Source: Candidatus Saccharimonas aalborgensis (GTDB lineage Bacteria; Patescibacteriota; Saccharimonadia; Saccharimonadales; Saccharimonadaceae). Taken from it: a stretch of DNA of 32,000 nt. The translations under genes were made by a program, and so were the position numbers. Below are positions 5,438-26,899 of the stretch, in pieces; within the stretch, counting starts at the first letter, position 1, and each line of letters starts with the position of its first letter. The stretch covers positions 630,001 through 662,000 of the forward strand of contig NC_021219.1 in assembly GCF_000392435.1 (NCBI RefSeq). The letters are read 5' to 3'. Under the pieces are notes generated by a model that did no database searches, was not told where the DNA came from, and saw nothing but the letters and a program-made list of their open reading frames with translations.

Positions 5438-7048
5438 ATGATACGTGTGGCTAATCCATTTGTTGGTATGTTTATACACACCAAGCGTGTAGGTCAACTC
5501 ATGTTGTTGTGTGTTAGCATTGCTCTTTGTAGCGGCACAGTAGCGTTTGCTACGCCTGATTACTATGTACTACGACAAGCGACGGTTGCGGGTGGCATTA
5601 GTAGTACCTGGGATGGGGTCGCATCAAGCGGTGATGGCACAAAGCTAGCTGTGATTATGTATGACGGCTATATCCACACCTCAACTGACAGCGGTGCGAC
5701 GTGGACTCAACAAGGAAGTTCAGGATCACGTAGCTGGCGCACTATTAGCTCAAGTACTGATGGTGCGAAGCTTGCCGCCGCCGCGTATGGTGGCTATATC
5801 TACACATCAACAGATAGTGGTGTGACTTGGGTAGAACAGACCGCTGCTGGTATGAGAAGTTGGCGCACTCTTGCATCGAGTGCTGACGGCACAAAGCTTA
5901 TCGCTGCTGACTACGGTGGCTATATCTACACTTCAACTGACAGCGGCGCGACGTGGACGGAACATACCGATGCCGGTTCTCAGGTATGGTGGTCCGTTGC
6001 TTCAAATGCGGACGGCACGGTTCTTGGTGCAGCGGCGATTAATGACTATGTTTATATCTCTACTGATGCTGGTGCTACCTGGACGCAGCAAACAGACAAT
6101 GGTCTTAATATGTGGTCATCACTTGCGATGAGTGCTGACGGTAATACAATTACCGCATCGGTCTACCAGGGAGGTATTTTTACCAGTTCAGATCGAGCTG
6201 CAACGTGGGTGAATCGCTCCAGCACTACTGGACCAAAAAACTGGTGGTATGTCACAGTGAACAGTGACGGCACCAAGCAAATAGCACTCGATACTGGTGG
6301 CTATATGTATACCTCAAATGACAGCGGTGCAACCTGGACTCAGCAAACTGCAAACGACATGCGATACTGGAACGCGGCCGCAATGACGAGTGACGGGAGT
6401 AAGGTTATACTCTCTGAGGAGATAGGGAATATTTATCTTGCGGCTACGCAGGGGTCTATTACTACAAATTTTGATATTGGCATGCTACCATCTTCGGGTA
6501 ATGTCCAGAGTACAATCGCCAATACGAAGCTCTCAGTTACTTCGTCAACTTGCTACACTATTGATAGTGGTTCAGTAACCCCCGTGGGGACATTGGGACT
6601 TGTGGTGCCAGATGCAGGGGTCTCTCTACTAGGTGGGGTTGCCTTCTCTATAAATTGTATGGTGCCTGGTGGCGTTGCGCCGTTCACGATCACCATGGGT
6701 AGTTATATACAAGATGAGTCATCACTTCATATTTATAAAAAAAATCCAGTCGATAACAATCTTGTCGATATTACGAGTAGCGTAATCGTAAAGAATGCTG
6801 TTATCAATGGAAAGCCAGTAACAACAGTTGAATACTCTCTCATGGACGGTGGTGCTTTCGATCAAGATGGAGTAAAGAATGGTATTATCGTCGATCCGAT
6901 ATACTTTGGGGTAGCAAGTACGCTTGCTGCTACTGGTGGGAATACTCAGCGTATTCTGATGATTGGCTGCTCTATGGTGTTGCTCGGTGTTATCCTACCC
7001 GCAACCATCTTTTTGTACAGAGGAAGAAGAATCCACGCTGCGAAGTAA
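5438..7048 (+). CDS. secreted BNR/Asp-box repeat (beta-propeller-like) surface protein with a C-terminal LAATG cell-wall sorting signal
   Basis: GGAGGG RBS at 5422-5427, 10 nt before the ATG at 5438 (the track start at 5345 is probably too early). Signal peptide ends in AFA. Six SxDxGxTW-type repeats at about 44-aa spacing. DGGAFDQDGVKNGIIVDP motif. Tail reads LAATG + hydrophobic stretch + RGRRIHAAK. Confidence 0.75.
   Translation: MIRVANPFVGMFIHTKRVGQLMLLCVSIALCSGTVAFATPDYYVLRQATVAGGISSTWDGVASSGDGTKLAVIMYDGYIHTSTDSGATWTQQGSSGSRSWRTISSSTDGAKLAAAAYGGYIYTSTDSGVTWVEQTAAGMRSWRTLASSADGTKLIAADYGGYIYTSTDSGATWTEHTDAGSQVWWSVASNADGTVLGAAAINDYVYISTDAGATWTQQTDNGLNMWSSLAMSADGNTITASVYQGGIFTSSDRAATWVNRSSTTGPKNWWYVTVNSDGTKQIALDTGGYMYTSNDSGATWTQQTANDMRYWNAAAMTSDGSKVILSEEIGNIYLAATQGSITTNFDIGMLPSSGNVQSTIANTKLSVTSSTCYTIDSGSVTPVGTLGLVVPDAGVSLLGGVAFSINCMVPGGVAPFTITMGSYIQDESSLHIYKKNPVDNNLVDITSSVIVKNAVINGKPVTTVEYSLMDGGAFDQDGVKNGIIVDPIYFGVASTLAATGGNTQRILMIGCSMVLLGVILPATIFLYRGRRIHAAK
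6923..7045 (+). other. tripartite sortase sorting signal (LAATG, TM stretch, basic tail)
   Basis: LAATG is encoded at 6923-6937. It is followed by GNTQRI, a 21-aa hydrophobic segment, and RGRRIHAAK. Confidence 0.7.
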
Positions 7049-7079
7049 ACAGGATGATGTTATGAAGCTGGCCGAGAGC

Positions 7080-7931
7080 TTATTCACCTGGATGTGTTGC
7101 GTCCATAAATAGCATATGGGATCTGTTATCTGCAACATATTCACCAAGCAGTGTTACCTGATGATCGCTTTTTTCGATCTGTTTTATCACGTGGTAAAGT
7201 TGCTCACCGGCTGCATCAACATCGATGAAGAACTTATAGTTCCATGGTTTACCAACAATGGGTTGTGACTGGAGTTTAGCGAGATTGATTCCGGCATCGG
7301 CAAACACCTGTAATACCTCGACAAGAGCACCGGGCTTATGACTGGTAGTAATCACCAGTGAGGATTTTGAGGCGTTTGCCTGGGCAGGTGTGGGCTCAAG
7401 GACGAGAAAACGCGTACTGTTGTCTTTGTGGTTTTGGATAGACCGTGCAATGATAGGGAGAGAGTGTAGCCTCGCTGCTTGAGCACCAGCGATCGCTGCC
7501 ATGTGCCGACCCTTTTCTGTTTTGATGAACTCGACCGCTCCTGCGGTATCAAAAAAATCGATCAACTCCGCGTTTGGCAGGTGTTTGGAAAGCCATTTGC
7601 GGCATTGTGCGAGAGCAACCGGGTGTGAGTAGACCTCAGTAATATCAGCTAGGGTAGCACCAGGGTTTACTACCAACATTTGATCGATGGCGAGCTTAAC
7701 CTCGCCAATAATGGGCGCTTCACACTCCTCGATAAGCTGATAGACTTCATTGATACTCCCAAAGATAGTGTTTTCGACTGCAGTGACGAGTGCGTCTGCC
7801 TCATCCGAGCCAAAGGCTTCGAAGGCATCGCGAAAACTAGTACAGGGGATGATTGTCACGCTATCGCCGTACCACTGCTTAGCTACTTGCTCGTGGAAAG
7901 ACCCGGCTTGGCCTTGGATTGCAACGTTCAT
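7080..7931 (-). CDS. pheA: prephenate dehydratase with C-terminal ACT domain
   Basis: Carries PDT-family motifs: VENTIFGSI, SHPVALAQC, NSTRFLVL, and an ACT region (KPGALVEVLQVFADAGINLAKLQSQP, YKFFIDVD). Confidence 0.85.
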   Translation of the reverse strand: MNVAIQGQAGSFHEQVAKQWYGDSVTIIPCTSFRDAFEAFGSDEADALVTAVENTIFGSINEVYQLIEECEAPIIGEVKLAIDQMLVVNPGATLADITEVYSHPVALAQCRKWLSKHLPNAELIDFFDTAGAVEFIKTEKGRHMAAIAGAQAARLHSLPIIARSIQNHKDNSTRFLVLEPTPAQANASKSSLVITTSHKPGALVEVLQVFADAGINLAKLQSQPIVGKPWNYKFFIDVDAAGEQLYHVIKQIEKSDHQVTLLGEYVADNRSHMLFMDATHPGE

Positions 7932-10548: not shown

Positions 10549-11092
10549 TCTCAAAAAAGGCACCGTCTGCCAGATTGATGGCAAGCCATATCGAGTCGTC
10601 GAGTATGCGCAAAAAGTCATGGGCCGCGGCGGCAGTATCGTCAATGTCAAGCTGAAGAACTTGATTGATGGCAGTGTCATCCCAAAAACCTTCAAGGGTC
10701 AAGATAAAATCGAGACAGCCGAAGTGCACAACAAAGCTGTCCAGTATCTCTATAATGACGGCGAAACCTTCTTCTTTATGGATCCGGAGAGCTTCGAGCA
10801 ATTCGAGTTATCGAGTGACGTTGTCGATGAAGCGAAGAGTTATCTCAAAGAAGGTGATGAACTCAGTCTCCAGTTTTTTGGTGATCGCGTGATCACTGTT
10901 GAGTTGCCAAAAAACCTCTATCTCGAAGTGACGTATACAGAAGACGTGGTGAAGGGCGACACTACCTCGAGTGTTCTCAAGGATGCAACGGTGGAAACGG
11001 GGCTTGTCGTCAAAGTGCCGTCATTTATCAAAGTAGGCGATATTATTTCGGTAGATACAGCAACTGGCGAGTATCGTGAACGCAAGAAGTAG
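10532..11092 (+). CDS. efp: translation elongation factor P
   Basis: ATG at 10532 overlaps the lysA 3' end by 17 nt. The sequence MYQPTDLKKGTVCQIDGKPYRVVEY...VKLKNL is EF-P-like. The loop residue is Arg32, not Lys. Confidence 0.9.
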   Translation: MYQPTDLKKGTVCQIDGKPYRVVEYAQKVMGRGGSIVNVKLKNLIDGSVIPKTFKGQDKIETAEVHNKAVQYLYNDGETFFFMDPESFEQFELSSDVVDEAKSYLKEGDELSLQFFGDRVITVELPKNLYLEVTYTEDVVKGDTTSSVLKDATVETGLVVKVPSFIKVGDIISVDTATGEYRERKK

Positions 11093-11095
11093 GAT

Positions 11096-11824
11096 GTGAA
11101 GCAGCGCCTTGATCAATTAATGACAGTCCGTGGACTTGTACCAACGCGCTCTCAAGCAGAGAGCTGGATTCGTCTCGGGCGGGTAAAGGTGAACGGTGCC
11201 GTCGTTACGAAGCCGGGGTCATTTGTTGATGAGGCTGCTTTTGTCTCGCTGGATGCTCCCGAACAGTATGTCAGTCGTGCTGGGTTGAAACTAGCCAGTG
11301 TGGCAAATGCGCTTGGCATTCGGTTTGCCGACAAAGTAGTGCTCGATGTGGGGAGTAGCACCGGTGGATTTACGGATTACGCGCTGCAACACGGAGCGCG
11401 GAAAGTCTATGCGGTCGATGTCGGCACCGATCAGTTGCACCCAAGTTTGCGGGGCAATCCACACATCGAACTACACGAAAAAACTGATATACGGAATTTT
11501 CAGCCCAAAGAGTGTCCTGATATCGTCGTCATGGATGTATCATTTATCAGTGTGCGAGAACTGTTGCCCTACATTGTGACGATTATCGGTGCACATACCC
11601 AGGTAGTAGTTATGGTGAAACCGCAGTTTGAGGCAGCACGAACCCAAATCGGCAGTAGTGGTGTGATCAAAAATGATAAGGTGCGACGGGAGATTTTGCT
11701 CGGCTTTGAGTCATGGATACGGTCATATTTTGTCGTACGAAAAAAGTCCGATAGTGAGGTGAGGGGGAGTCGTGGTAATAGGGAACGATTTTATTTACTA
11801 GCGCGCACAAAAACTTTACAATAA
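11096..11824 (+). CDS. tlyA: TlyA-family rRNA 2'-O-methyltransferase (S4 domain + FtsJ-like methyltransferase)
   Basis: GTG start. N-terminal S4-like RLDQLMTVRGLVPTRSQAESWI. SAM motif VLDVGSSTGGFTDYAL. Confidence 0.85.
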   Translation: MKQRLDQLMTVRGLVPTRSQAESWIRLGRVKVNGAVVTKPGSFVDEAAFVSLDAPEQYVSRAGLKLASVANALGIRFADKVVLDVGSSTGGFTDYALQHGARKVYAVDVGTDQLHPSLRGNPHIELHEKTDIRNFQPKECPDIVVMDVSFISVRELLPYIVTIIGAHTQVVVMVKPQFEAARTQIGSSGVIKNDKVRREILLGFESWIRSYFVVRKKSDSEVRGSRGNRERFYLLARTKTLQ

Positions 11825-11843
11825 TACTAGATTATGATATTAT
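11815..11843 (+). promoter_or_regulatory. promoter upstream of the first high-GC island gene
   Basis: TTTACA (11815-11820, overlapping the tlyA stop), 17-nt spacer ending in TGA, then TATTAT (11838-11843). Confidence 0.4.
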
Positions 11844-11897
11844 TCGTAAGACAATACTCTCGAGGTGGAAATCGATGAGTAGCGTTGTAGTACCACC

Positions 11898-11951
11898 GAT
11901 CGGGTTGTAGCAATCAAATGCTCCCCGCCGGGGCGCATTAACAATCCGATC
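11898..11951 (+). other. long imperfect stem-loop in the 5' leader, at the left edge of the island
   Basis: GATCGGGTTGT pairs with ACAATCCGATC (11 bp). AATGC pairs with GCATT (5 bp). CCCC pairs with GGGG around a 3-nt loop. There is an 8-nt bulge. Confidence 0.3.
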
Positions 11952-11987
11952 ATCTCATAAAGAACAACAGAAGGAAGTGATGATTAG

Positions 11988-13544
11988 GTGACTCTCGCCA
12001 CATCATGGCGGCGTCGGCTCGGTGCCCTTGTGGCATCTGTGCCGCTTGTCGCCGCGCTCGGTATGTCCTTCGGGGCTGCCGAGGCGCAGGCACACACCGG
12101 TGATCTCACCGGTGTGGCGGTCTGCCAGGCGGACGGGAGCTACAAGGCTCCCGTCAAACTGACGACCGCCAACGTTCCCGCTGGCAACAGCGGGTCGACC
12201 ATGTGGAAGCTGGGTACCCCCAGCTTCCAGGGCACGCCGACCAGCGCCGCTGGTATGGACCGCGGTCCCGTGGCGTCCGTGGGCAACACCACGGTCACCT
12301 TGGGGACGCTGACGTTCCCAGGCACCACCACGGGTTCACCGTGGGTGTATGCCTACACGAGCTGGACTCCGGACGGCTTCGCGCGCGGTTCGGATAACCA
12401 GATCACCGGCATGGACGGAACCTGCATCCCCGACAACCCCGGTCCCCGCACCGTCATCGGTACGGTCCAGAAGGGGACGGCCAGCTGCACGACCCACGAG
12501 GTCGAGCAGTTCCGGGTGGACACGGTCATCCCGCAGGTCTGGAGTGCCACCGCCAAGGCCTACATCGACGACCCCGACAAGAGCCACTGGACCACGGTCC
12601 GGGTCGACTTGCCGTCGCGTCCGATGACGGCCGACGAGGTCAAGGCCTGTCCGGTTCCCGACGTCAAGCAATGCGTCACCACCGTCGGTTTCCCGACCGA
12701 CGCGGTGGTGTACGCCGACGTTCACACCGCGGCTGACAGCCCGGTGGACAACGTCATCACGTCGGGCCCGTTCACCGTCAACACGCAGATCTCGGTCAGC
12801 GTGCCGACCACGAACTACAAGTTCACCGTCATCCGGATCGTCGCCAAGGACGGCACGGTGCTCAAGACCCAGCAGGTCACCAGCACCACCGCCTGCAACA
12901 CGGTGATCCCCGACAACCCCGGTCCCCGCACCGTCATCGGTACGGTCCAGAAGGGGACGGCCAGCTGCACGACCCACGAGGTCGAGCAGTTCCGGGTGGA
13001 CACGGTCATCCCGCAGGTCTGGAGTGCCACCGCCAAGGCCTACATCGACGACCCCGACAAGAGCCACTGGACCACGGTCCGGGTCGACTTGCCGTCGCGT
13101 CCGATGACGGCCGACGAGGTCAAGGCGTGTCCGGTGGACGTTCCCCCGAACCCGGGTCCCAAGACGGTCGTCGGGAACTGGCAGAAGATCGAGGGCTCCG
13201 GTGACTGCGTCACCACCTACTCGGTCTGGGAGCAGCAGGGCACCTGGTCGGTTCCGCAGATCTGGTCGAACGGCGCGTACGTCAACGACCCGAACACCGC
13301 CCACTGGACCTTGGTGAAGGTCGACAAGCGTTCGCGCCCGATGACGGTTGCGGAGCTCAAGGCCTGTCCCACCAGCTCCGACAGCGACCGTGGCATCGAC
13401 GCCACGCCGGGCCTCGAGGGAGCTGCCCACAACTGGGTGGCGATCCTGACTCCATCTGGCATCGTTCTCCTGGTCGGTCTGCTGGCCATCTGGACGACGC
13501 TGGTGCTCCGGCGTCGGCGCCAACCCATGGAGGAGGAGATCTAG
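11988..13544 (+). CDS. high-GC secreted protein with three Cys-bracketed modules and a C-terminal membrane anchor
   Basis: GTG start 7 nt after GAAGGAAG. Signal peptide ends in AAEAQA. G/C-ending codons. Two identical 77-aa modules and one diverged module. C-terminus reads WVAILTPSGIVLLVGLLAIWTTLVL + RRRRQ. Confidence 0.75.
   Translation: MTLATSWRRRLGALVASVPLVAALGMSFGAAEAQAHTGDLTGVAVCQADGSYKAPVKLTTANVPAGNSGSTMWKLGTPSFQGTPTSAAGMDRGPVASVGNTTVTLGTLTFPGTTTGSPWVYAYTSWTPDGFARGSDNQITGMDGTCIPDNPGPRTVIGTVQKGTASCTTHEVEQFRVDTVIPQVWSATAKAYIDDPDKSHWTTVRVDLPSRPMTADEVKACPVPDVKQCVTTVGFPTDAVVYADVHTAADSPVDNVITSGPFTVNTQISVSVPTTNYKFTVIRIVAKDGTVLKTQQVTSTTACNTVIPDNPGPRTVIGTVQKGTASCTTHEVEQFRVDTVIPQVWSATAKAYIDDPDKSHWTTVRVDLPSRPMTADEVKACPVDVPPNPGPKTVVGNWQKIEGSGDCVTTYSVWEQQGTWSVPQIWSNGAYVNDPNTAHWTLVKVDKRSRPMTVAELKACPTSSDSDRGIDATPGLEGAAHNWVAILTPSGIVLLVGLLAIWTTLVLRRRRQPMEEEI
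12426..12646 (+). repeat. intragenic direct repeat, copy 1
   Basis: 221 nt identical base-for-base to 12906-13126, at an offset of exactly 480 nt. This was checked line by line. Confidence 0.95.
12906..13126 (+). repeat. intragenic direct repeat, copy 2
   Basis: Identical to 12426-12646. The next 9-10 nt differ only at two synonymous positions (12647/13127 and 12656/13136). Confidence 0.95.
13137..13370 (+). repeat. diverged third copy of the same protein module
   Basis: Shares the skeleton PxNPGPxTVxG..QK..C..PQxWS..DPxxxHWTxVxVDxxSRPMTxxExKACP with copies 1 and 2. The similarity is at protein level only. Confidence 0.6.
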
Positions 13545-13577
13545 CCTTCTCCACACCGTGAGATGAACGGTATACCC

Positions 13578-13633
13578 AGGGGGTCTCTCTGGAGTGATGC
13601 ACGTTGTTCGTGTGTCCTCCAGGGAGGCCCCCT
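13578..13633 (+). terminator. long GC-rich stem-loop downstream of island gene 1
   Basis: 17-bp stem (15 Watson-Crick + 2 G-U): AGGGGGTCTCTCTGGAG pairs with CTCCAGGGAGGCCCCCT. The 22-nt loop can form a further 7-bp helix. There is no clear U tract. Confidence 0.4.
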
Positions 13634-13651
13634 TCTCACTATCTGAAATTA

Positions 13652-13680
13652 TTTACATTCATAGAATAATATGGTATTAT
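13652..13680 (+). promoter_or_regulatory. promoter of the sortase-like gene, inside an AT-rich patch
   Basis: TTTACA (13652-13657), 17-nt spacer ending in TGG, then TATTAT (13675-13680). These are the same hexamers as at 11815-11843. Confidence 0.45.
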
Positions 13681-13729
13681 ATATTTCAAGTTCTATTCAT
13701 AGGGCTGGTCTATTGGCACTGCCGGTACG

Positions 13730-14476
13730 ATGACAACTCGACGTATGAAAGGAGGTGTGGATTCGTCCATGCCACGCTACACAAAGCGCTACTGGGTATT
13801 GGCAATAATACTGTCGCTTCTGGTTTCGCTAGGAGTGGGGGTTTACTCCTACCTCCGGCAATCTGACGACGTGCCGCCACCGGTACGCGTCTCAGTACCC
13901 ACCGCCTCGGTCAAGACGACACTTCGGTCAGAAGCTACGCTGCCTGTTGTCGCCCGATCAGTGCCGAAGCGGGTGATGATTCCGGCAATCGGCGTCGATG
14001 TCGAGATCGACGAAGCTGTGCCGTGCCCGCTCAATGACGCCGGTATGGTCGAACCGGATTTTCGGTTCCCGATGAAGGCCTGCTACTACACGGCCCTCAA
14101 CAAGCCGTACCAGCTACCCGGTACCACTACTACCGACTTGTCGGTCATCGTGGGTCACACCTGGCGCAAGGGAGACGCTGCCTTCAACCCCATGTATGAC
14201 TGGCAGGCTGCAAACCCGCATGTCATGGTCGAGCTTGGTGATGAGCTGCTGCTCAAAACCCAGGCATCGGGTGAGCATGTCTTGGTCTACCAGGCGGTGC
14301 AGATCGACGAGGTCGACAAGTACGGTCCGGACCATCTGGGCCAGTCGACCAAGGTATGGGGGACGAAGCCAATTCCGAATTGGCTGGTGACGCTTGCTTG
14401 CTTGCAGCCGTCAAACAGCCTCGAACACTCCACCAAGGTCATTGCCATCGGCTGGAAGCTTGTCGGTGCGCGCTAG
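13730..14476 (+). CDS. sortase-family protein (resembles actinobacterial class F), N-terminal TM anchor
   Basis: RVMIPAIGVDVEIDEAV, VIVGHTW (candidate catalytic His) and LVTLAC (candidate catalytic Cys in a TLxTC-like motif). High GC. The start is uncertain: the ATG at 13769 lies 13 nt after GGAGG. Confidence 0.7.
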   Translation: MTTRRMKGGVDSSMPRYTKRYWVLAIILSLLVSLGVGVYSYLRQSDDVPPPVRVSVPTASVKTTLRSEATLPVVARSVPKRVMIPAIGVDVEIDEAVPCPLNDAGMVEPDFRFPMKACYYTALNKPYQLPGTTTTDLSVIVGHTWRKGDAAFNPMYDWQAANPHVMVELGDELLLKTQASGEHVLVYQAVQIDEVDKYGPDHLGQSTKVWGTKPIPNWLVTLACLQPSNSLEHSTKVIAIGWKLVGAR

Positions 14477-14499
14477 CCGTCCATCACTACGTCGAGGAT

Positions 14500-14543
14500 C
14501 CCCCTGAAACTGACGCATACCAGCGGCAGGAGTAGGGGGTTTT
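14500..14543 (+). terminator. weak candidate terminator at the right edge of the island
   Basis: CCCCCT pairs with AGGGGG (6 bp) around a 28-nt loop, followed by TTTTCTC. The long loop makes this doubtful. Confidence 0.25.
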
Positions 14544-14551
14544 CTCATATC

Positions 14552-15634
14552 TCATTTAGTGACATTAAACCGAAATTCAACAATATCGTTTGGTTGCATG
14601 ACGTAGTCGCGGCCCTCAGTACGAACTTTTCCGGCTGCTTTGGCAGCTACTTCGCTGCCTGCCGCGATGAGATCATAATAATCAACTACTTGTGCTGCGA
14701 TGAAGCCGCGCTCAAAGTCGCTATGGATCACACCCGCTGCCTGCGGCGCTGTCCAGCCTTGATGGATAGTCCAGGCCCGTACTTCTTTTTGGCCTGCGGT
14801 CAGATAACTCTGAAGTCCGAGTACATCGTAGGCAGCATGAATCATCTGCACGAGTCCCATCTCAGGTACATCATAACTCGCGAGGAGTTCAGCCGCATCG
14901 CTGGGACTGAGGCCTTTGAGTTCGTCCTCCAGTTTTGCACAAATAAGCAGCGCAGGGCTATCTCCGGCCAGATGGCGAAGACCATTTTTCGCATCGTCAT
15001 TAACGAGCATTTCCTCATTAACATTAAATACATAGATAACGGGTTTTGCGGTGAGGAGATGAAGGTCGTTAATGTATTCATGAATAATGTTTTTACTCAC
15101 TGAGAGCGGGATACCAGCCTCAAAATTACGCTTGATACCTTCGAGATAGTCCAAGGCGTCACGCACCTTTGGGTCAGCCTTTGCTTCTTTCTGAAGACGA
15201 CCTATACGCGTCTCGATGGTTTGCAGATCTGCGAGAATAAGCTCGGTGTTGATTGTTTCAATATCACGGCTTGGGTGCACTCCATTGTCGACATGGATGA
15301 TGTCGTTGTTTTCAAATGCCCTGACAATATGGATAATGGCATCACACTGGCGGATATTCGCCAAAAATTTATTGCCCAACCCTTCGCCCCTACTGGCTCC
15401 GGCAACCAGCCCGGCGATATCAACAAAGGTAACGCTCGCCGGAATAATCTTTTCTGAATTATACATTTTTGCCAATACGTCTAGGCGATCGTCTGGCACA
15501 GGTACTGCGCCTGTATTTGGCTCGATAGTGGCAAACGGATAATTGGCGGCCAAAATGTCGTTGTTGGTAAGTGCGTTGAAAAGTGTCGACTTGCCGACAT
15601 TGGGAAGGCCGACGATTCCGATAGATAAAGACAT
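14552..15634 (-). CDS. ychF: ribosome-binding ATPase YchF (Obg-family GTPase)
   Basis: GIVGLPNVGKSTLFNALT P-loop, DIAGLV, and a C-terminal TGS-like region. Confidence 0.9.
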   Translation of the reverse strand: MSLSIGIVGLPNVGKSTLFNALTNNDILAANYPFATIEPNTGAVPVPDDRLDVLAKMYNSEKIIPASVTFVDIAGLVAGASRGEGLGNKFLANIRQCDAIIHIVRAFENNDIIHVDNGVHPSRDIETINTELILADLQTIETRIGRLQKEAKADPKVRDALDYLEGIKRNFEAGIPLSVSKNIIHEYINDLHLLTAKPVIYVFNVNEEMLVNDDAKNGLRHLAGDSPALLICAKLEDELKGLSPSDAAELLASYDVPEMGLVQMIHAAYDVLGLQSYLTAGQKEVRAWTIHQGWTAPQAAGVIHSDFERGFIAAQVVDYYDLIAAGSEVAAKAAGKVRTEGRDYVMQPNDIVEFRFNVTK

Positions 15635-15640
15635 AAACCG

Positions 15641-15670
15641 ACTATATCACTAACAGGGGTGGTTTGTCGA
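15641..15670 (-). promoter_or_regulatory. ychF promoter, apparently leaderless
   Basis: The minus strand reads TCGACA, 18-nt spacer ending in TGA, TATAGT, then CGGTTT and ATG. Only 6 nt separate the -10 from the start codon. Confidence 0.4.
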
Positions 15671-15692
15671 TATCACCAGCTGCATGTAGTAT
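15664..15692 (+). promoter_or_regulatory. promoter of the 2H phosphoesterase gene, apparently leaderless
   Basis: TTGTCG (15664-15669), 17 nt, TAGTAT (15687-15692), then 6 nt to the ATG at 15699. No Shine-Dalgarno sequence. Confidence 0.35.
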
Positions 15693-15698
15693 GAGAAC

Positions 15699-16172
15699 AT
15701 GCAATATTCACAGAAGTATAGTCTTGTTGGGTTCCTTGAACATCAACCTAAAGGTTTCGAGTATAATATGTCTGACTGGCCGCTGCATATGACGTTTGCC
15801 GATGTTTTTGCTATAGACCGAAATAGCACAGATATAGACGAAAAGATGGAAAACGTCTTGCGTAGCCAACACGCAGTACTCGTCAAGCCGAAGCATCAAG
15901 CAAAACTAGGTGACACCACTGTAATATTAGTTGAGAAAACAGACGAGCTCGTCGAGCTTCACACCATGGTAGTTGATTTGCTCGAGCAAAATGGTGCCAT
16001 TTTTAATACACCAGCATTTACGAGGGAGGGGTTTCTGCCACATTGTACAATTCAAAAATCGGGTATGCTGCAAAAGGATGTGGTAATTGATGAATTAGCG
16101 CTTGTCGACATGTTCCCGAACAGTGATTGGCGGCAAAGGAAGATACTCGCGACGTTTAAGCTGGGTGGATAG
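15699..16172 (+). CDS. 2H phosphoesterase superfamily protein (2'-5' RNA ligase/LigT-like)
   Basis: Two HxT motifs at the expected spacing: PLHMTF and LPHCTI. Small size (157 aa). Confidence 0.65.
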   Translation: MQYSQKYSLVGFLEHQPKGFEYNMSDWPLHMTFADVFAIDRNSTDIDEKMENVLRSQHAVLVKPKHQAKLGDTTVILVEKTDELVELHTMVVDLLEQNGAIFNTPAFTREGFLPHCTIQKSGMLQKDVVIDELALVDMFPNSDWRQRKILATFKLGG

Positions 16173-19479: not shown

Positions 19480-20532
19480 ATGAATCTAAAGAAGGGGATG
19501 GGCGATTTCTTTGCACTCGACATCGGCACTAACGCCGTTCGGGTGGTGCAGTTATCGGCTAGCGGCGCCAATAACTGGATGCTTGTTGCTCATGGCTACG
19601 CACCCATTGATAGTAAGATTACTTCGAGTGATTCCCCCGAGGCTCGGCGGCGACTTGGCGAAGTGATTATCACAGCGCTAGGACAAAGTGGCATAAAGAC
19701 AAAAAACGTGGTGATCGGACTACCTTCGAATAAGACGTTTACGACGGTTATCGATGTACCATCGGTAGCCGAGTCAGAACTAAAAGCAACGATGAAATAT
19801 CAAATTGATCAGTATATTCCTATGTCAGTCGATGATGCAAAGGTTGACTGGGCTCTGCTTGGACCATCATTACACGCTCAAAATCAGCAGGAAGTGTTGA
19901 TCACGAGTACCGCAAAGGTTTATAGCGAAGAACGGCTAGAGATGATTGAAGCCCTTGGGCTCAATGTTATCGCTGCCGAGCCAGATCCTATCGCGATGGT
20001 GCGTGCTCTCGTACCAGAAGGCACGGCGAGTACGGCGATGATGCTGATTGATATCGGTGAGCAGTCGACCGACCTAGCAATTACCTACGGTGATACGCCG
20101 CGACTCGTGCGCACGGTCCCCACGGGGCTTGGATCATTGGTGAAGTCGGCTGTCCAAAACCTCAATGTCCAGGACGACCAAGCTCGTCAGTTTATCCTGA
20201 AATTTGGGCTTGCACCAGATAGGCTTGAAGGTCAAGTGCTCCACGCTATCGAAAACGTGCTTGATAGTTTCGCAGCCGAAATGACAAAATCCGTTAAGTT
20301 CTTTCAGACGAGGTATCCCAACATCGCTATAAGTGGCATTTTGCTCTCAGGATTTGGTGCAGTCATACCACGGTTTAATGAGTACGTCGCGACAAAGGTT
20401 GGTATCCAGACGGCACTTGCCAATCCATGGCAAAACATTCGTATGTCACAGAATGACCAGCAGCAGCTTGCTGCGATTGCCTCTGAGTTTACGACAGTGG
20501 TAGGTCTCGCGAAGAGGAAGAACTTGTCATGA
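19480..20532 (+). CDS. pilM: type IV pilus assembly protein PilM (actin-like ATPase fold)
   Basis: FFALDIGTNAVRVV N-terminus, about 350 aa. ATGA overlap with the pilN-like gene. Confidence 0.8.
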   Translation: MNLKKGMGDFFALDIGTNAVRVVQLSASGANNWMLVAHGYAPIDSKITSSDSPEARRRLGEVIITALGQSGIKTKNVVIGLPSNKTFTTVIDVPSVAESELKATMKYQIDQYIPMSVDDAKVDWALLGPSLHAQNQQEVLITSTAKVYSEERLEMIEALGLNVIAAEPDPIAMVRALVPEGTASTAMMLIDIGEQSTDLAITYGDTPRLVRTVPTGLGSLVKSAVQNLNVQDDQARQFILKFGLAPDRLEGQVLHAIENVLDSFAAEMTKSVKFFQTRYPNIAISGILLSGFGAVIPRFNEYVATKVGIQTALANPWQNIRMSQNDQQQLAAIASEFTTVVGLAKRKNLS

Positions 20533-21254
20533 TCGAAGTCAACTTGATTCCTGATGTAAAGCAAGAATTCATACGTGCTCAGCGTACACGCAATACGGTG
20601 ATCTCTTTCTCTATTATGGCAAGTATCGCGGCGGGTGTGGCAATTGTCATTTTCGCGCTGTTACTTGGTGGTCAGGGTGTTCGTGAAATTTTGGCAGACA
20701 ATAGCATTAAGGATGACTATGCAACACTCAAAAAAAATGAGAATCTCAGTAATTTAGTGACAATCCAAAACCAGTTGGCTCAAGTGTCAACACTAAACAA
20801 TGACAAAGGTATCAATTCGCGCCTATTTGACATTTTAGGTGGTATCAACCCGAAAGACCCAAATCACGTTCGGATTTCTACTGTTTCGTTGAATCCTACT
20901 GACAATTCACTGTCGATCGAGGGCTCGGCGGCAAATAGCTTTACTGCGACCGACGCGTTCAAAAAAACAATACTGAATACCAAGGTTGTCTATACCGACA
21001 GAGATGGTAAGGAGCAAACGATCAATCTCACCGATAGTGTTACGCTCAATAATGCTAGTTATGGAACCGATACGACTGGGGCAAAGGTATTACAGTTCAA
21101 GCTCTCCTTTGTTTATCCCAAGGAGCTCTTTGCCAACACCTCTACAAATGTTCGAATCGTTTCGCCCACGAAGGTAACCGACGTTACCGACTCTAGAACA
21201 CGAGTTCCCGACGATTTGTTCTCGTCGTCACCAAAGACAGGAGACACAAAGTAA
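20529..21254 (+). CDS. pilN: PilN-like pilus assembly protein
   Basis: MIEVNLIPD N-terminus, followed by a single TM helix. Positioned directly after pilM. Confidence 0.7.
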   Translation: MIEVNLIPDVKQEFIRAQRTRNTVISFSIMASIAAGVAIVIFALLLGGQGVREILADNSIKDDYATLKKNENLSNLVTIQNQLAQVSTLNNDKGINSRLFDILGGINPKDPNHVRISTVSLNPTDNSLSIEGSAANSFTATDAFKKTILNTKVVYTDRDGKEQTINLTDSVTLNNASYGTDTTGAKVLQFKLSFVYPKELFANTSTNVRIVSPTKVTDVTDSRTRVPDDLFSSSPKTGDTK

Positions 21255-21937
21255 TGGCTCAGAAAGATGTCAGTGCCAACAAACGTCAGCAAATAGCCAA
21301 ATCAAGTCGCATGATGTTCATCTGGGTGGCAGGTGCCTCTGTCTTGGTCGGGTTTGCGGCAGTAATTTGTTGGTTTTTGATTCAGCAAATTATGTTTAAG
21401 GAAAAGGTAATCACTGAAAAAAATAAAACTGTCTCAACCTTACAGCAGAACATCAAGGCGGTGCCCAAGCTGTCGGACAATATTCGGGTGCTTGAAACCA
21501 ATGTTGCTCTGAATTCGGCGAAGGCAAATTCAAACGAAAAGGCACTCCAGGTGATTTTGGACGCATTACCCGCCGACGAGAATACCTTGGCACTTGGGGC
21601 ATCACTACAGACAAAGTTAATTGGTAGTGGTGGTAATCTTACGATTGATTCACTTGATGCCACACCTGCAGTAGGCGCAAACGGTACGGCAAATAGCAGT
21701 ACTACTTCCGATGGGGTACAAAGGATGGCTTTCTCATTTACAGTGTCTTCATCTGACCCAAATGCCATCAAAGACCTTTTGAAACGTCTCGAGCGCTCGG
21801 TACGCATCATGGATATCGATACATTGAGGATCGAACAGTCTGAGACTCGTATGACAATGGTAGTTCAGGCACACGCCTATTACTTACCGGAAAAGAAGAT
21901 CGAGCTGAAAAAAATACCTGTGGGAGCGCGTAAATAA
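21254..21937 (+). CDS. pilO: PilO-like pilus assembly protein
   Basis: N-terminal TM helix followed by a coiled-coil-like segment. TAATG coupling on both sides. Called from position and architecture only. Confidence 0.55.
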   Translation: MAQKDVSANKRQQIAKSSRMMFIWVAGASVLVGFAAVICWFLIQQIMFKEKVITEKNKTVSTLQQNIKAVPKLSDNIRVLETNVALNSAKANSNEKALQVILDALPADENTLALGASLQTKLIGSGGNLTIDSLDATPAVGANGTANSSTTSDGVQRMAFSFTVSSSDPNAIKDLLKRLERSVRIMDIDTLRIEQSETRMTMVVQAHAYYLPEKKIELKKIPVGARK

Positions 21938-22170
21938 TGAAGAAAACAGATATAGCTATGATCGTTCTCATCGCCGGTCTTGCAGTGCTCACCGCTTTTC
22001 TCGTTGCGAGCAACATTCCTTTTTTGCAGGTTTCCGAAAAAGGGGTACAGGTGGATACAATCGAGAGTATATCTGATAGAGTTGAGCCACCTGATCAAAA
22101 CGTATTTAACAGTAACGCCATCAATCCCACGGTCGAAACGTTTATCGGTGACAAGACGCTACCGCAATAG
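21937..22170 (+). CDS. small single-pass membrane protein (77 aa) of the pilus cluster
   Basis: TAATG overlap with the pilO-like gene. Contains MKKTDIAMIVLIAGLAVLTAFLV. No family recognised. Confidence 0.5.
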   Translation: MKKTDIAMIVLIAGLAVLTAFLVASNIPFLQVSEKGVQVDTIESISDRVEPPDQNVFNSNAINPTVETFIGDKTLPQ

Positions 22171-22181
22171 GGATTGCTGAC

Positions 22182-23945
22182 ATGGCGTTAATGACAAATG
22201 ACATACAAGAAAAACTCGTAAAGCTTCTCACCGAAGAAGGCTTGGTGAGTACTGATGTGATACAAAGTGCGACTACTGAGGCAGCCGGGTCGGGTAAAAC
22301 ACTGCTTACGGTTCTTACTGAGCAAGATGCAATTGATGACGAACTGCTGACTCATGCGATTGCGCAAGTTTCGGGGGTCCCCTATGTCAATCTCAGCAAT
22401 AGCGTGATTGACCAGGGTATTCTGTCACTTTTGCCATCTGATATCGCTGAGCGCTTTATGGCGGTACCGCTCGCAGAGGTTCAAAACCGACTTGCAGTTG
22501 CAATGATTGATGCAAATAACGTGCAGGCAGTCGACTATCTCGCTAATCGCATCCAACGACCCTTAAAGGTATTTATGGCGTCGGAGGCGGGTGTGAGACA
22601 CGTGCTTGATCAATACAAGACCGACTTATCAAGTGTTGATGTGGCTGCTGAGGTATCTCAAAAAGAAGCAGCTCAAGAAGAAACCAAGGACATTAAGACG
22701 ATTGTTCAGGATTCTCCTATCAGCCGTGCACTCAGTACAATTTTGGAATACGCGGTAAAGTCTAGGGCAAGTGACATCCATATCGAACCATTTGAAAAAG
22801 CTCTCAAGATTCGCTGCCGCGTTGACGGTGTGCTTAGGGAAGTGATGCAGCTGCCAAAAAGTATCGAACCCGCTCTCATTAGTCGTATCAAGATTCTTTC
22901 TAACCTTAAAATTGACGAGCATCGCACACCACAGGACGGTCAGTTTGCCGTAAAAGTAGGTAACAAAGAAGTTGATCTCCGTATCGCCATCAGCCCAGTG
23001 GTGTGGGGGGAACAGGTGGTAATTCGATTGCTTGATAAATCAGGTAATAGCTTTGACCTCGAAGAGATGGGATATGCCGGCCGCGCCTTACGTACTATTC
23101 AAAAAGGCGTCAAAAAACCGAACGGGATGCTCCTCACCTCTGGACCTACAGGCTCAGGAAAGTCAACTAGCCTCTATGCTCTCATCAAGGAAATAAAGGA
23201 CGAGACTATCAACATTGTGACACTTGAGGATCCGGTAGAATACAAAATGGATGGTGTCAATCAGATTCAGGTTAACGCAGAGGTAGGGCTAACTTTCGCA
23301 TCGGGGCTGCGCTCGATTTTGCGTCAAGATCCAAACGTGGTGATGGTAGGTGAGATTCGTGATGGCGAGACTGCAAACTTGGCTGTGCAAGCAGCACTCA
23401 CTGGACATCTCGTATTTAGTACGTTGCACACTAATTCTGCGGCCGGAGTGCTACCGCGCCTTCTGGATATGGGTATTGAGCCATTTTTAATCGCGAGTAC
23501 CGTCAACACGATTATCGGACAGCGTCTTGTTCGCCGTGTGGCCCCTCAACGTGATGCCTATTGGTCGAGTCCACTTGAAACAAAAAGTATTCTCGACACC
23601 GTCGGTCACTTGTTACCAAAGACCAAAGAGGAAGTGGCACGGGTTTCTGCCGATCTCGGCTATAAGGACTTGCCACTTGCAGGTCAAACCGCTTATACTT
23701 TAGTAAAGGGACGTGACACTCCCTCGACACCCCGCGGTTATACGGGGCGGGCTGGACTGTACGAAGTGATGGATATTACAGAGGAAATACAAGACCTCAT
23801 TGTCGCACGCTCGACAAGTGCCGACATTCAACGTAAAGCAGTCGAGCAGGGCATGATTACAATGCGTCAAGATGGTTACCTGAAGGCGCTAACAGGGGTC
23901 ACGACACTAGAGGAAGTCAATCGTGTCGCGGCAGATACAGCATAA
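22182..23945 (+). CDS. pilB: type IV pilus assembly (extension) ATPase PilB/GspE family
   Basis: N-terminal T2SSE_N-like domain, Walker A GPTGSGKST, Asp box LEDPVEY, Walker B VVMVGEIRD, His box STLHTNSA. Confidence 0.9.
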   Translation: MALMTNDIQEKLVKLLTEEGLVSTDVIQSATTEAAGSGKTLLTVLTEQDAIDDELLTHAIAQVSGVPYVNLSNSVIDQGILSLLPSDIAERFMAVPLAEVQNRLAVAMIDANNVQAVDYLANRIQRPLKVFMASEAGVRHVLDQYKTDLSSVDVAAEVSQKEAAQEETKDIKTIVQDSPISRALSTILEYAVKSRASDIHIEPFEKALKIRCRVDGVLREVMQLPKSIEPALISRIKILSNLKIDEHRTPQDGQFAVKVGNKEVDLRIAISPVVWGEQVVIRLLDKSGNSFDLEEMGYAGRALRTIQKGVKKPNGMLLTSGPTGSGKSTSLYALIKEIKDETINIVTLEDPVEYKMDGVNQIQVNAEVGLTFASGLRSILRQDPNVVMVGEIRDGETANLAVQAALTGHLVFSTLHTNSAAGVLPRLLDMGIEPFLIASTVNTIIGQRLVRRVAPQRDAYWSSPLETKSILDTVGHLLPKTKEEVARVSADLGYKDLPLAGQTAYTLVKGRDTPSTPRGYTGRAGLYEVMDITEEIQDLIVARSTSADIQRKAVEQGMITMRQDGYLKALTGVTTLEEVNRVAADTA

Positions 23946-23957
23946 AAGGGAGAAGGC

Positions 23958-25028
23958 ATGAATAATCCAGAACTACGCATCGAAGTATTACTAGAAGAAG
24001 TTGTTCGCAAGCGCGCTTCAGACCTTCATATTCAGGTGGGGTTACCACCAATGCTTCGTGTTGATGGTGCGTTGATACCAATTGTCGGCTTCAATCCTCT
24101 TGATGAGCAGCAAGTTGAGTCACTTGTGTTTGCCATCTTGGACCAGGATCAGCAACAAATTCTTCTTAAAGACAAGGAGTTTGACTTCAGCTTTGCTTTC
24201 GGGACGTTAGGGCGGTTTCGCGTTAACGCCTTTCACGAACGTGGTAACCTGGCTGCTGCGCTACGTCTCATCCCAAATGAGATCAAGTCTGTTACTGAAC
24301 TGGGTATGCCGCAAGTAGTGCTCTCATTTGCTGACTATCCGCGCGGTCTTGTACTTGTAACAGGACCAACTGGGTCTGGAAAATCAACCACGCTTGCTGC
24401 TCTTGTAGACAAAATCAACAGTGAACGCGCTCACCACATTATCACAATTGAAGATCCAATTGAATTTACTCACAAGTCAAAGAAATCTGTTATTGTTCAG
24501 CGAGAAGTACATTACGATACCTACTCGTTCTCTGCAGCGCTGCGTAGCTCACTTCGTCAAGATCCTGATGTTGTGTTGATTGGTGAGATGCGCGATCTCG
24601 AAACGATTTCTGCGGCAATTACGATTGCCGAAACCGGTCACTTAGTCTTTGCGACACTCCACACTAACTCGGCCTCGCAGTCCATCGACCGTATGATCGA
24701 TGTGTTTCCCCCTCACCAGCAACCACAGATTCGCGCACAGCTTGCTAATATTCTGATGGCAATCTGTAGTCAGCGCCTTGTACCTGCTATTGGTGGGGGA
24801 AGGGTAGTTGCAGCTGAAATTCTTATTGCAAATCCTGCGGTGCGCAATGTTATCCGTGAAGGCAAGAGCCATCAGCTTGATGCCATTATCCAGACTGGTG
24901 CAGATCAGGGAATGCAGACCATGGATCGTACGCTTGTGAATCTGGTTCAGAGTGGAACGGTGACGTATGACAATGCTCGTGAGTTTGCCGTTGACCTGAC
25001 AGAGTTTGAGCGATTGATGAGAGGATGA
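23958..25028 (+). CDS. pilT: twitching-motility (retraction) ATPase PilT
   Basis: ASDLHI, GPTGSGKSTT, IITIEDPIEF, ATLHTNSA and the PilT-type AVRNVIREGK motif. 356 aa. Confidence 0.9.
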   Translation: MNNPELRIEVLLEEVVRKRASDLHIQVGLPPMLRVDGALIPIVGFNPLDEQQVESLVFAILDQDQQQILLKDKEFDFSFAFGTLGRFRVNAFHERGNLAAALRLIPNEIKSVTELGMPQVVLSFADYPRGLVLVTGPTGSGKSTTLAALVDKINSERAHHIITIEDPIEFTHKSKKSVIVQREVHYDTYSFSAALRSSLRQDPDVVLIGEMRDLETISAAITIAETGHLVFATLHTNSASQSIDRMIDVFPPHQQPQIRAQLANILMAICSQRLVPAIGGGRVVAAEILIANPAVRNVIREGKSHQLDAIIQTGADQGMQTMDRTLVNLVQSGTVTYDNAREFAVDLTEFERLMRG

Positions 25029-25034
25029 TAACAC

Positions 25035-26240
25035 GTGAAGAAATTTAATTACGAAGCACGTGACAAGAACTCCGACAAAATTATTAAGTCGATTGTTCAG
25101 GCTGATTCGGAAACCTCGGCGGCGAAAGCATTGGTTGAGCAGGGGTATACGCCCCTTACCATCAAGGAAGTAGACGAAAATGGTGGATTGATCGGCCGTC
25201 TGACCGGAAGGATTAAGACGAAAGATAAGATCGTATTTACTCGACAGCTTGCCACTCTGATCGGAGCTGGTTTGCCACTCGCACAAAGCATTCGGACAGT
25301 GCTTGATCAAACGCAGAATAAAAAACTCCAGGGAGTAATCCAAGAAGTCATCGCCGACGTCGAGGGTGGTAAGCAGTTATCGGAAGCATTTGGAAAGCAC
25401 CCCGAAGTCTTCGATAAGATTTTTTTGGCACTTGTGGCGGCCGGTGAAGTATCGGGAACACTCGATGAGGCACTCAAACGTGTTGCAGCACAGCAAGAAA
25501 AAGATGCAGCTATGATGAGTAAAATAAAGGGTGCAATGACGTATCCTATCATTGTAATGGTTGTTATACTGGCGGTGATGTTGTTTATGCTATTTACCGT
25601 GGTTCCACAGGTTGAAAAGCTCTATCATGATATGAAAAAGTCACTTCCTATGCTGACCGAAATCATGATAAACAGTGCAAACTTCATGATTCACTTCTGG
25701 TGGCTTGTACTTGTCGTTATGTTTATTGGCATTTATTTCTTGAGACAGTATATGCATACCGAAAACGGTATCAGGACATTCGATACCCTCAAACTCAATG
25801 CCCCGTTGTTTAAGGGAATGTTTCGTAAACTTTATATGGCACGCTTCACCCGTACAGGACAGACGCTACTGTCGACCGGTGTGGCAATGCTCGACATGCT
25901 ACGCATTAGTTCGGAGAGTGTAAACAATGTGGTTGTCAGCAAGAGTATTGATCGAGCGGCCGAGAAAGTAAAGGGGGGTAAGGCACTTTCAGCTGCTATT
26001 CAGTCGGAGGAGTACATCCTACCAATGGTTCCGCAGATGATCAAGATTGGCGAACAGTCAGGCAAAATTGATGAGATGATGGGCAAGACGGCCCAAGTGT
26101 TTGAGGATGAGCTTGACGAAGAGATCAAGGCGATCTCGACAGCGATCGAACCGATCCTTATGGTGGTTCTTGCTATCGTAGCTGGTGGAATGGTAGGAGC
26201 AATCCTCTTCCCAATCTATAGCCTCGTAAATGGCGTCTAA
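25035..26240 (+). CDS. pilC: type IV pilus platform protein PilC/GspF family
   Basis: GTG start. Duplicated GspF-type domains (FTRQLATLIGAGLPL and FTRTGQTLLSTGVAMLD) with three TM regions. Confidence 0.85.
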   Translation: MKKFNYEARDKNSDKIIKSIVQADSETSAAKALVEQGYTPLTIKEVDENGGLIGRLTGRIKTKDKIVFTRQLATLIGAGLPLAQSIRTVLDQTQNKKLQGVIQEVIADVEGGKQLSEAFGKHPEVFDKIFLALVAAGEVSGTLDEALKRVAAQQEKDAAMMSKIKGAMTYPIIVMVVILAVMLFMLFTVVPQVEKLYHDMKKSLPMLTEIMINSANFMIHFWWLVLVVMFIGIYFLRQYMHTENGIRTFDTLKLNAPLFKGMFRKLYMARFTRTGQTLLSTGVAMLDMLRISSESVNNVVVSKSIDRAAEKVKGGKALSAAIQSEEYILPMVPQMIKIGEQSGKIDEMMGKTAQVFEDELDEEIKAISTAIEPILMVVLAIVAGGMVGAILFPIYSLVNGV

Positions 26241-26244
26241 GTAC

Positions 26245-26273
26245 TAGACAAATAACACCGAGCACGCTATGAT
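26245..26273 (+). promoter_or_regulatory. pilin gene promoter
   Basis: TAGACA (26245-26250), 17 nt, TATGAT (26268-26273). AAAGGTGG RBS 9 nt before the ATG. Confidence 0.45.
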
Positions 26274-26319
26274 AGGCCTTAAGCATAAGTATTGTTCATA
26301 AGAAAGGTGGAACGAAACT

Positions 26320-26826: not shown

Positions 26827-26853
26827 GCATCTGTATATAGTCTGAGCATTCGA

Positions 26854-26882
26854 ACCGCGTCTCTTCCAGTGACGCGGTCTTT
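26854..26882 (+). terminator. hairpin terminator/attenuator after the pilin gene
   Basis: ACCGCGTC pairs with GACGCGGT (8-bp perfect stem, 9-nt loop), followed by CTTTG. The U tract is short. Confidence 0.5.
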
Positions 26883-26890: not shown

Positions 26891-26899
26891 ATCTGGAGT

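Follow-up and report, generated by a model that had tools for sequence, protein, structure and literature searches.

A surface-protein gene and a sortase-fold gene of actinobacterial type at the tlyA–ychF locus of Candidatus Saccharimonas aalborgensis

How did two genes with the base composition of a high-GC (guanine plus cytosine) actinobacterium come to stand between the housekeeping genes tlyA and ychF of Candidatus Saccharimonas aalborgensis, a minute episymbiont of wastewater origin, and what might their products do? We analysed this pair, gene A for a modular surface protein and gene B for a sortase-fold enzyme, within a 32,000-nt stretch of contig NC_021219.1 (hereafter the window). The product of gene A is 100% identical to the S. 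aalborgensis hypothetical protein P0005 (1,013,781-bp contig). We consider it probable that the pair is a fixed, plausibly host-derived surface-display cassette of actinobacterial type, in which A is anchored to the cell wall by B.

The initial annotation had described the region from 11988 to 14476 as conspicuously GC-rich inside lower-GC flanks occupied by tlyA and ychF, and this description holds. In 500-nt segments, GC reaches 66–68% at 12001–13500 and 54–59% at 13501–14500, versus 42–54% across the rest of the 32 kb. At third codon positions (GC3) the 26 other genes of the window average 0.473 ± 0.037 (range 0.41–0.545), compared with 0.879 for gene A (overall GC 0.665, z = 10.8) and 0.699 for gene B (overall GC 0.581, z = 6.0). 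The rise tracks the coding sequences: the spacer 5' of A has 28–50% GC and the AT-rich spacer between A and B has 24–46%, with a minimum of 24–26% at 13630–13700. Around the pair, the window carries a set of core genes usual for Saccharibacteria (RNase J, FtsK, S6/SSB/S18, elongation factor P, the TlyA-type FtsJ/S4 methyltransferase and YchF). The 406-aa antisense open reading frame (ORF), already suspected to be artefactual, is present, and its translation is Arg/Gly/Asp-rich and of low complexity.

One simple answer would be that actinobacterial DNA was wrongly joined to a Saccharibacterial contig during assembly or binning. The composition does shift abruptly at gene boundaries, and high-GC Actinobacteria with related genes also occur in activated sludge (the related locus L022 is labelled as activated-sludge metagenome). 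However, the same tlyA–A–B–ychF junctions recur in CP065017 (99.9% identical, 936-kb contig), a JGI contig (95.6%) and several ENA contigs (87–94%) from other samples. Because identical junctions are found in at least six independent assemblies, a chimera is excluded at the assembly level. Furthermore, the synonymous divergence (dS) of A and B between strains (0.25–0.46) matches that of tlyA and ychF (0.30–0.53), and the AT-rich spacers 5' of both genes contain promoter-like sites. We give a chimeric origin next to no chance; the cassette is genuine and chromosomally fixed. Both genes are under purifying selection, with ratios of nonsynonymous to synonymous divergence (dN/dS) of 0.17 for B and 0.19–0.41 for A. 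In CP065017 (L005, 7406–9402) gene A was called as three overlapping pieces of 235, 353 and 136 aa, for which assembly indel errors and a real frameshift are both possible.

Gene B is predicted to encode a cysteine transpeptidase that is anchored in the membrane and folds like a sortase. A word-indexed search returned three relatives, whereas an exhaustive HMMER search returned 115 cluster representatives, 60 of them with E < 1e-10; 51 were aligned. With this 51-sequence alignment the AlphaFold2 model of B reached a predicted local distance difference test score (pLDDT) of 89.6, compared with 37 when the alignment held only three sequences. In a Foldseek search of the PDB, all of the top 50 matches to the model were sortases of classes A, C and E (SrtE, SrtA, SrtC; probability 1.0), with a best E of 3e-7 and a best template-modelling score, normalised to target length, of 0.72, which makes the eight-stranded sortase beta-barrel a confident prediction. 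The putative catalytic residues His143 (in VIVGHT) and Cys224 (in LVTLAC) are nearly invariant, being kept in at least 90% of the 51 relatives, and in an alignment with Staphylococcus aureus SrtA the motifs GHT and TLxC coincide with its H120 and C184.

Where B belongs among sortases is less clear-cut. B itself did not match the Pfam Sortase family (PF04203), and its membership follows from transitive homology and fold; 16 of the 51 relatives matched, with a best E of 7.8e-14. The class F model (NF033748) gave B 22 bits over residues 74–160 only (E = 1e-4), and it matched 13 of the 51 relatives, all weakly (best E = 5.9e-12). Since the cut-off is 166 bits, we place B outside class F. The earlier label of a class F-like sortase thus survives for the fold but not for the class: the models indicate a separate, uncharacterised subfamily that is 'class F-like' at best. 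Searches with the B family found no match among PDB sequences (profile search) and nothing in viral contigs. Alternative starts for B lie at 13745 and 13769.

Gene A had been read as a signal-peptide protein with Cys-bracketed modules, a transmembrane helix and an RRRR tail, and the sequence bears this out. It has the layout of an LPXTG-type protein, with an N-terminal signal peptide, a C-terminal hydrophobic segment and a basic tail. The two Cys that bound its N-terminal domain are invariant among the aligned family members, and all nine members have A-H-T-G-D where signal peptidase is predicted to cut. The mature protein would start with His (12093–12104, aa 36–39), as in histidine-brace copper proteins, which is a resemblance only. 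Downstream, the modules are ordered X-Y-X-X'. Positions 12426–12655 and 12906–13135 form a perfect 230-nt direct repeat with a period of 480 nt, and the copy number of this 480-nt X-Y unit differs between strains, CP065017 having one more than the window (a third copy). Searches with A yielded no matching family or model in Pfam and NCBIfam and nothing on plasmids (tblastn), and a profile search with its N-terminal domain found no match among PDB sequences.

The C-terminus of A reads DRGIDATPGLEG, followed by a 25-residue hydrophobic segment and then RRRR-QPMEEEI. This tail (...DRGIDATPGLEGAAHNW...) contains no LPXTG/LAXTG pentapeptide and does not match PF00746. The same arrangement of helix and basic tail was seen in L001, L018, L029, L021, L023 and L027. 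LTPSG, within the hydrophobic segment, was considered as a sorting motif and rejected, as strain variants have IFGPAG there.

The main argument that B would process A comes from the co-occurrence of enzyme and motif. At 12 of 12 B-type loci with upstream sequence, the adjacent same-strand upstream ORF ends in a conserved non-LPXTG motif with the consensus RG-I-G-A-N-T-G-V-D, of which RGIDATPGLEG is the window version. These loci comprise six Saccharibacterial contigs of four lineages (window, L012/L013, L001, L018 and L029) and six high-GC loci, with L026/L027 counted once; L024 and L028, which have no usable upstream sequence, are outside the count. Written to the stop codon, with TM for a transmembrane helix, the tails are GRGIGANTGVDDAR (L015, L019 and L020), TRGIGANTGVDSAS (L016), TRGIGANTGIESSSSP (L022), PRGIGADTDADQR (L025), DRGIGVDTGITG...TM...RRR (L021), LPGVDTGIPDD...TM... 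(L023), SNYDTGVDEG...TM... (L026/L027), SRGTGANTGPDE...TM... (L001), GDGANGGMDT...TM...RRRRSA (L018), SRGVAANTDGEAGG...TM... (L029) and DRG[IV]DATPGLEG...TM...RRRRQP (window and strain variants). In the Saccharibacterial substrates the motif is followed by a membrane helix and a basic tail. LPXTG/LAXTG-type signals were present in 11 proteins with the A N-terminal domain that lack an adjacent B-type gene or whose neighbourhood was not inspected; they were absent from P0011, a further member of the A family.

S. aalborgensis-like strains without B provide a natural comparison. In L007 and L011, homology to the window stops at about 13140–13170 and restarts only at 14554, so that the last module, the tail and B are present or absent as a unit. 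The A homologues of these strains end instead in an LPHTG tail (LPHTG was read in the sister-strain proteins P0007 and P0008), and this exchange upon loss of B implies that the old tail depended on B. From these patterns, the tail of A is predicted to be a sorting signal whose non-LPXTG motif is specific to the B-type sortase subfamily, and B would act on A at that motif, with catalysis itself inferred.

Both products had been judged actinobacterial in style, and the codon usage and relatives of the two genes agree with that judgement. The relative synonymous codon usage (RSCU) of A correlates with that of Dermatophilaceae/Actinomycetales loci at 0.90, versus 0.06 with the window genes, and that of B at 0.70 versus 0.10. 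The nearest B homologues outside the Saccharibacteria (44–45% identity) belong to a Dermatophilaceae and an Actinomycetales metagenome-assembled genome, have the same two-gene order, and lie in DNA that is uniformly 63–70% GC (67% native). Other metagenomic B relatives, most members of the family bearing no taxon label, are on contigs of 65–71% GC. The N-terminal domain of A is 46–61% identical to LPXTG/LAXTG proteins elsewhere, on contigs that, where inspected, have 59–71% GC. These include the viral-filed IMG/VR contigs L030 and L031 and the phage-like L010 (71% GC; holin, RecT and YqaJ genes), where the anchors are of LAXTG type; for P0014, it is the central domain that has matches among hypothetical proteins of Microbacterium phages. 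Phages of Actinobacteria may spread A-type surface-protein modules. From these comparisons, an actinobacterial, plausibly host-related source of the cassette is well supported.

Is the cassette then a recent, strain-specific genomic island brought in by a mobile element, as the initial annotation implied? Gene A does appear unameliorated, its GC3 (0.88) being as high as in actinobacterial cassettes (0.78–0.85), and an element with a serine recombinase lies beside ychF in some strains. In L002 (9914–12715) and L007 (3072–6029) this element, composed of a large serine recombinase (Resolvase + Recombinase + Zn ribbon), a 66-aa gene and an AAA_25 gene, abuts the 5' end of ychF. It looks like an integrative element targeting the ychF start; however, it sits on ychF's far (5') side, and at 39–49% its GC is native-like. 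The ychF of L007 was called as 304 aa only, overlapping the recombinase gene. At the cassette itself none of the hallmarks of a mobile island was found, in line with the first description of the region: there is no tRNA in the window, no flanking direct repeat longer than about 17 nt, and no integrase or recombinase within 16 kb, the sole recombinase of the window being a Xer-like tyrosine recombinase at 31047–31994, 16.5 kb away.

The age of the site also speaks against a recent island. At least five Saccharimonas-like lineages have a surface-protein gene and a B-type gene together at the tlyA–ychF site (the window clade, L018, L001–L004 and L029; in L028, at least B is beside ychF), although YchF is only 65–78% identical among them. 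The pair is therefore neither strain-specific nor recent, and with the within-species match in dS described above we hold a recent island to be very improbable. The locus has a long history in the Saccharimonas lineage. In a neighbour-joining analysis with 200 bootstraps, B formed two Saccharibacterial clades that mirror the core genes, supported by 141/200 (70%) and 178/200 (89%) of replicates, which suggests vertical descent of B within each clade. The pair is GC-rich in every lineage with comparable flanks: GC3 is 0.67–0.71 in B (0.61 in L028, on a short contig without a usable flank) and 0.76–0.88 in its partner, over a flank background of about 0.35–0.60, with one gene at 0.72. In the four lineages compared for the partner gene, the surface proteins are mosaics that differ from lineage to lineage; they share no common N-terminal domain, and the modules of each find their best matches in proteins on high-GC contigs.

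Several observations weigh against a functional, host-derived cassette, and the first of them concern the enzyme and its substrate. In the B family no conserved Arg follows the Cys to correspond to the catalytic Arg of sortases (the beta8 equivalence was judged from the alignment); a nearly invariant Asn stands instead at Cys+13, where the window B has Lys236-Val237. The window motif has Pro in place of the Thr of 'TG' (T-P-G versus N-T-G). Substrates of the Dermatophilaceae type end about 5 residues past the motif and lack a membrane helix, unlike classical sorting signals. The activity of the B subfamily is itself predicted from fold and sequence, and that of the S. aalborgensis A–B pair may be altered or lost. 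Hence B might be degenerate or repurposed and A a plain C-terminally membrane-anchored protein, as would also fit the missing Pfam match of B and the existence of sister strains that live without it. We regard such a loss of function as distinctly unlikely, because B evolves at a dN/dS of 0.17 and keeps His143, Cys224 and about 30 further family-invariant residues, because RG[IV]DATPGLEG is retained between strains at 86% protein identity while adjacent residues vary, and because loss of B was accompanied by the exchange of the tail for LPHTG.

The other difficulties concern origin and role. The deep nodes of the B tree are unsupported and the Saccharibacterial clades are interleaved with high-GC sequences, their joint monophyly appearing in 7.5% of replicates; the direction of transfer is accordingly deduced from composition and family distribution, not from tree topology. 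The host, too, is deduced, Actinobacteria being plausible, and the adhesin role of A is conjectural. As to the earlier suggestion that the cassette may be host-derived, the link to Actinobacteria as hosts is plausible. Finally, dS between Saccharimonas-like lineages is at least 1.5, so that synonymous sites are saturated; had there been one ancient transfer only, amelioration should have erased its signature since. B is GC-rich nonetheless, which a single old transfer does not explain.

This persistence might indicate that the cassette is an old resident whose high GC is made locally, by GC-biased gene conversion at a hot spot or by codon selection, the transfer having happened once long ago or having run from Saccharibacteria to Actinobacteria. 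The B clades that mirror core-gene relationships are compatible with this, as is the similar GC3 of B in every lineage (0.61–0.70) despite dS of at least 1.5, which is expected at equilibrium; the identical 230-nt repeats and their copy-number variation likewise reveal active recombination inside A. In contrast, the rise in GC ends at the gene boundaries and leaves the A–B spacer at 24–46%, which is unexpected for gene conversion, and the agreement in codon usage with actinobacterial loci extends to detail (r = 0.90) and is not a matter of GC alone. The family is also much broader among sequences with an amino-acid composition of high-GC type, and the surface genes of the lineages are not homologous along their length, yet have modules in common with proteins on high-GC contigs. 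We consider a locally made composition unlikely. The persistent GC could stem from repeated replacement by sequence from high-GC donors, from GC-biased gene conversion or from codon selection; for the surface gene we favour repeated rebuilding, and for B we prefer none of the three.

Taken together, these data are best accommodated by an actinobacterial surface-display cassette that works as follows. The cassette would have been acquired horizontally from high-GC Actinobacteria of the Dermatophilaceae/Actinomycetales kind, and its surface-protein gene would have been rebuilt repeatedly from actinobacterial modules, which would keep its composition foreign. A would be exported via Sec and then held in the membrane by its tail, where B would cleave it at RGIDATPGLEG through Cys224/His143. 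By presumed transpeptidation, B would then transfer A to a putative acceptor in the cell wall, and the displayed A might act as an adhesin towards the host bacterium. A bolder proposal, possible but on balance doubtful, is that tlyA–ychF is a long-lived 'host-surface' locus, at which naturally competent cells repeatedly import surface-protein modules from Dermatophilaceae-type hosts behind a private, non-LPXTG His-Cys-Asn sortase. Such import would keep the GC host-like, and the displayed protein would set the host range or disguise the symbiont.

Parts of this scheme have precedents. Like the class E/F sortases of Actinobacteria (e.g. Streptomyces coelicolor SrtE1 and Thermobifida fusca SrtE, both among the best PDB fold matches), B has an N-terminal membrane anchor, a predicted sortase beta-barrel, and His and Cys motifs; class F is the only NCBIfam model that B touches, and distant A-family proteins carry LAXTG/LPXTG. 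Unlike them, B falls far below the class F cut-off (22 bits versus 166), has no Pfam match and comes from a family with Asn instead of the conserved Arg, and its motif has no Leu-Pro/Ala but reads G-A-N-T-G, with some substrates lacking a membrane helix. In dedicated cassettes of Gram-positive bacteria, such as those of pilin-specific class C sortases and of class B sortases with NPQTN, the sortase gene neighbours that of its private substrate, whose variant motif is left unused by the housekeeping sortase. The present cassette resembles these in its private neighbouring substrate, variant motif and modular repeat-domain architecture; it differs in its single substrate gene, its motif, its Patescibacterium host and the lack of any sign of pilin polymerisation, although the pilin motif and E-box were not searched for. 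Gram-positive adhesins of the Rib/alpha-like type have tandem repeats that are identical at the DNA level. A is similar in its identical 230-nt repeats, 480-nt period and strain-variable copy number, but it shows no sequence similarity to those families, matching nothing in Pfam, and the PDB search gave no solved structure for its N-terminal domain.

Gene transfer from hosts to Saccharimonadia has also been reported. A 2026 preprint describes an epibiotic association between Saccharimonadia and Ca. Phosphoribacter, gene transfer linking Ca. Lutisaccharimonas with Ca. Phosphoribacter, and a Saccharimonas–Tetrasphaera_A pair backed by horizontal gene transfer and by spacer matches from clustered regularly interspaced short palindromic repeats (bioRxiv 10.64898/2026.09.16.751625); generic horizontal transfer between candidate phyla radiation bacteria and hosts is known from activated sludge (PMC10031880). 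Those cases and ours have in common that the donor is actinobacterial, that the recipient belongs to the Saccharimonadia and that the setting is activated sludge. However, the reported transfers are recent fragments, more than 90–99% identical, that hold regulators and unknown genes beside recombinases, whereas our cassette encodes a surface-display system, its identity to any donor found is 44–61%, and its conserved housekeeping site is free of mobility genes. The initial annotation had known of no described system of this kind. Dedicated sortase cassettes and host-to-episymbiont transfer are in fact already known, but the B subfamily, its motif and the tlyA–ychF locus are apparently new: in the literature we found no paper describing the subfamily or an RGIGANTGVD-type motif.

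The features of the locus are collected in Table 1. The promoter scan of the region returned 7 sites versus 1.1 expected. The two genes are probably separate transcription units, given the hairpin after the stop of A and the identical promoter-like element before each gene. None of 200 shuffled sequences folded as well as the hairpin after A, although the U-tract that follows it is weak. The 140-nt leader of A (11850–11987), from the promoter-like site to the GTG start, folds at −42 kcal/mol (z = −2.9 versus shuffled) and includes a GC-rich hairpin, GCUCCCCGCCGGGGCGC. An Rfam search of 11000–16000 found no family, including in this leader.

Table 1. Positions of genes, protein parts and candidate signals at the tlyA–ychF locus (numbering of the window)
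Feature	Position	Strand	Description
tlyA flank	11096–11824		FtsJ/S4 'TlyA' methyltransferase
Promoter candidate for A	11815–11843	+	Sigma-70-like, TTTACA-17-TATTAT, extended TG; 10/12 matches, consensus match only; GC 28–34%, native-looking
Gene A	11988–13544	+	518-aa modular surface protein; GTG start
A signal peptide, aa 1–35	11988–12092	+	...AEAQA / HTGDL; read from sequence, cleavage site inferred
A conserved N-terminal domain, aa 36–146	12093–12425	+	111 aa; between Cys46 and Cys146
Antisense ORF	12336–13556	−	406 aa; not a gene but an artefact that the GC-rich coding strand produces
Module X, copy 1	12426–12655	+	About 77 aa, Cys-bracketed; arm of the perfect 230-nt repeat; GC3 0.93–1.0
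Module Y	12656–12905	+	About 83 aa, Cys-bracketed; between the identical X copies
Module X, copy 2	12906–13135	+	Identical to copy 1
Module X, copy 3 (X')	13136–13370	+	Diverged; 75% nt identity over the conserved 95 nt at 13275–13369
Candidate sortase motif, aa 468–478	13389–13421	+	RGIDATPGLEG; counterpart of RGIGANTGVD upstream of other B-family sortases
Hydrophobic helix, aa 483–507, and RRRR stop-transfer tail, aa 508–511	13434–13520	+	Read from sequence; with the motif, parts of a predicted tripartite sorting signal
Hairpin after A stop	13578–13633	+	Long, near-perfect; likely terminator; centroid −47.6 kcal/mol, z = −6.6
Promoter candidate for B	13652–13680	+	Sigma-70-like, same hexamers as for A, extended TG; consensus match only; GC 24–26%
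Gene B	13730–14476	+	248-aa membrane-anchored sortase-fold protein
B parts	within 13730–14476	+	Transmembrane helix aa 18–43, linker, catalytic domain aa ~74–248
B His143	14156–14158	+	
B Cys224	14399–14401	+	
Hairpin between B and ychF	14494–14546	.	GC-rich, followed by UUUUCU; between convergent 3' ends; probable shared terminator; −27.6 kcal/mol, z = −1.8 (weak)
ychF flank	14552–15634	−	YchF

The surroundings of the cassette offer further observations. A complete type IV pilus cluster lies 4–13 kb downstream (19480–27772) and contains PilM, two unassigned genes, PilB-type and PilT-type ATPases, PilC, a pilin with an N-methylation motif and a prepilin peptidase; a PilM-type gene is also found downstream in the related loci L001, L005 and L006. 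In L001 the automatic call took an antisense Arg-rich ORF, the counterpart of the one in the window (6973–7845, − strand, 290 aa, GC3 0.56), where the sense strand encodes a 281-aa surface protein (7003–7848, + strand, GC3 0.82) that has both a signal peptide and a sorting tail; mis-annotation of high-GC inserts thus happens easily in Saccharimonas-like genomes. A protein with PG_binding_4 and Beta-lactamase2 domains is encoded after tlyA in L001 (5072–6781) and before it in L018 (156–1835), and is absent from the window, so the neighbourhood varies in cell-wall-related genes. In L008 (GCA_964642275.1, ~55% GC), the A-family protein P0010 has an LPATG anchor (gene GC 0.67, GC3 0.855) and is encoded about 3 kb from ychF, with a Y1 transposase and an M14 peptidase in between and no B-type sortase.

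How Saccharibacteria recognise and hold their hosts is largely unexplained, and the host of S. aalborgensis, the first closed genome of the group, has not been established. The cassette is a concrete and testable candidate for a host-interaction determinant, and it points to Dermatophilaceae, a family that includes phosphate-removing wastewater bacteria, as donors and perhaps as hosts. The sortase subfamily, apparently undescribed and equipped with a motif of its own, should interest cell-wall biologists and possibly developers of protein-ligation tools, and a foreign composition that has lasted over saturated divergence is a small evolutionary puzzle in its own right.

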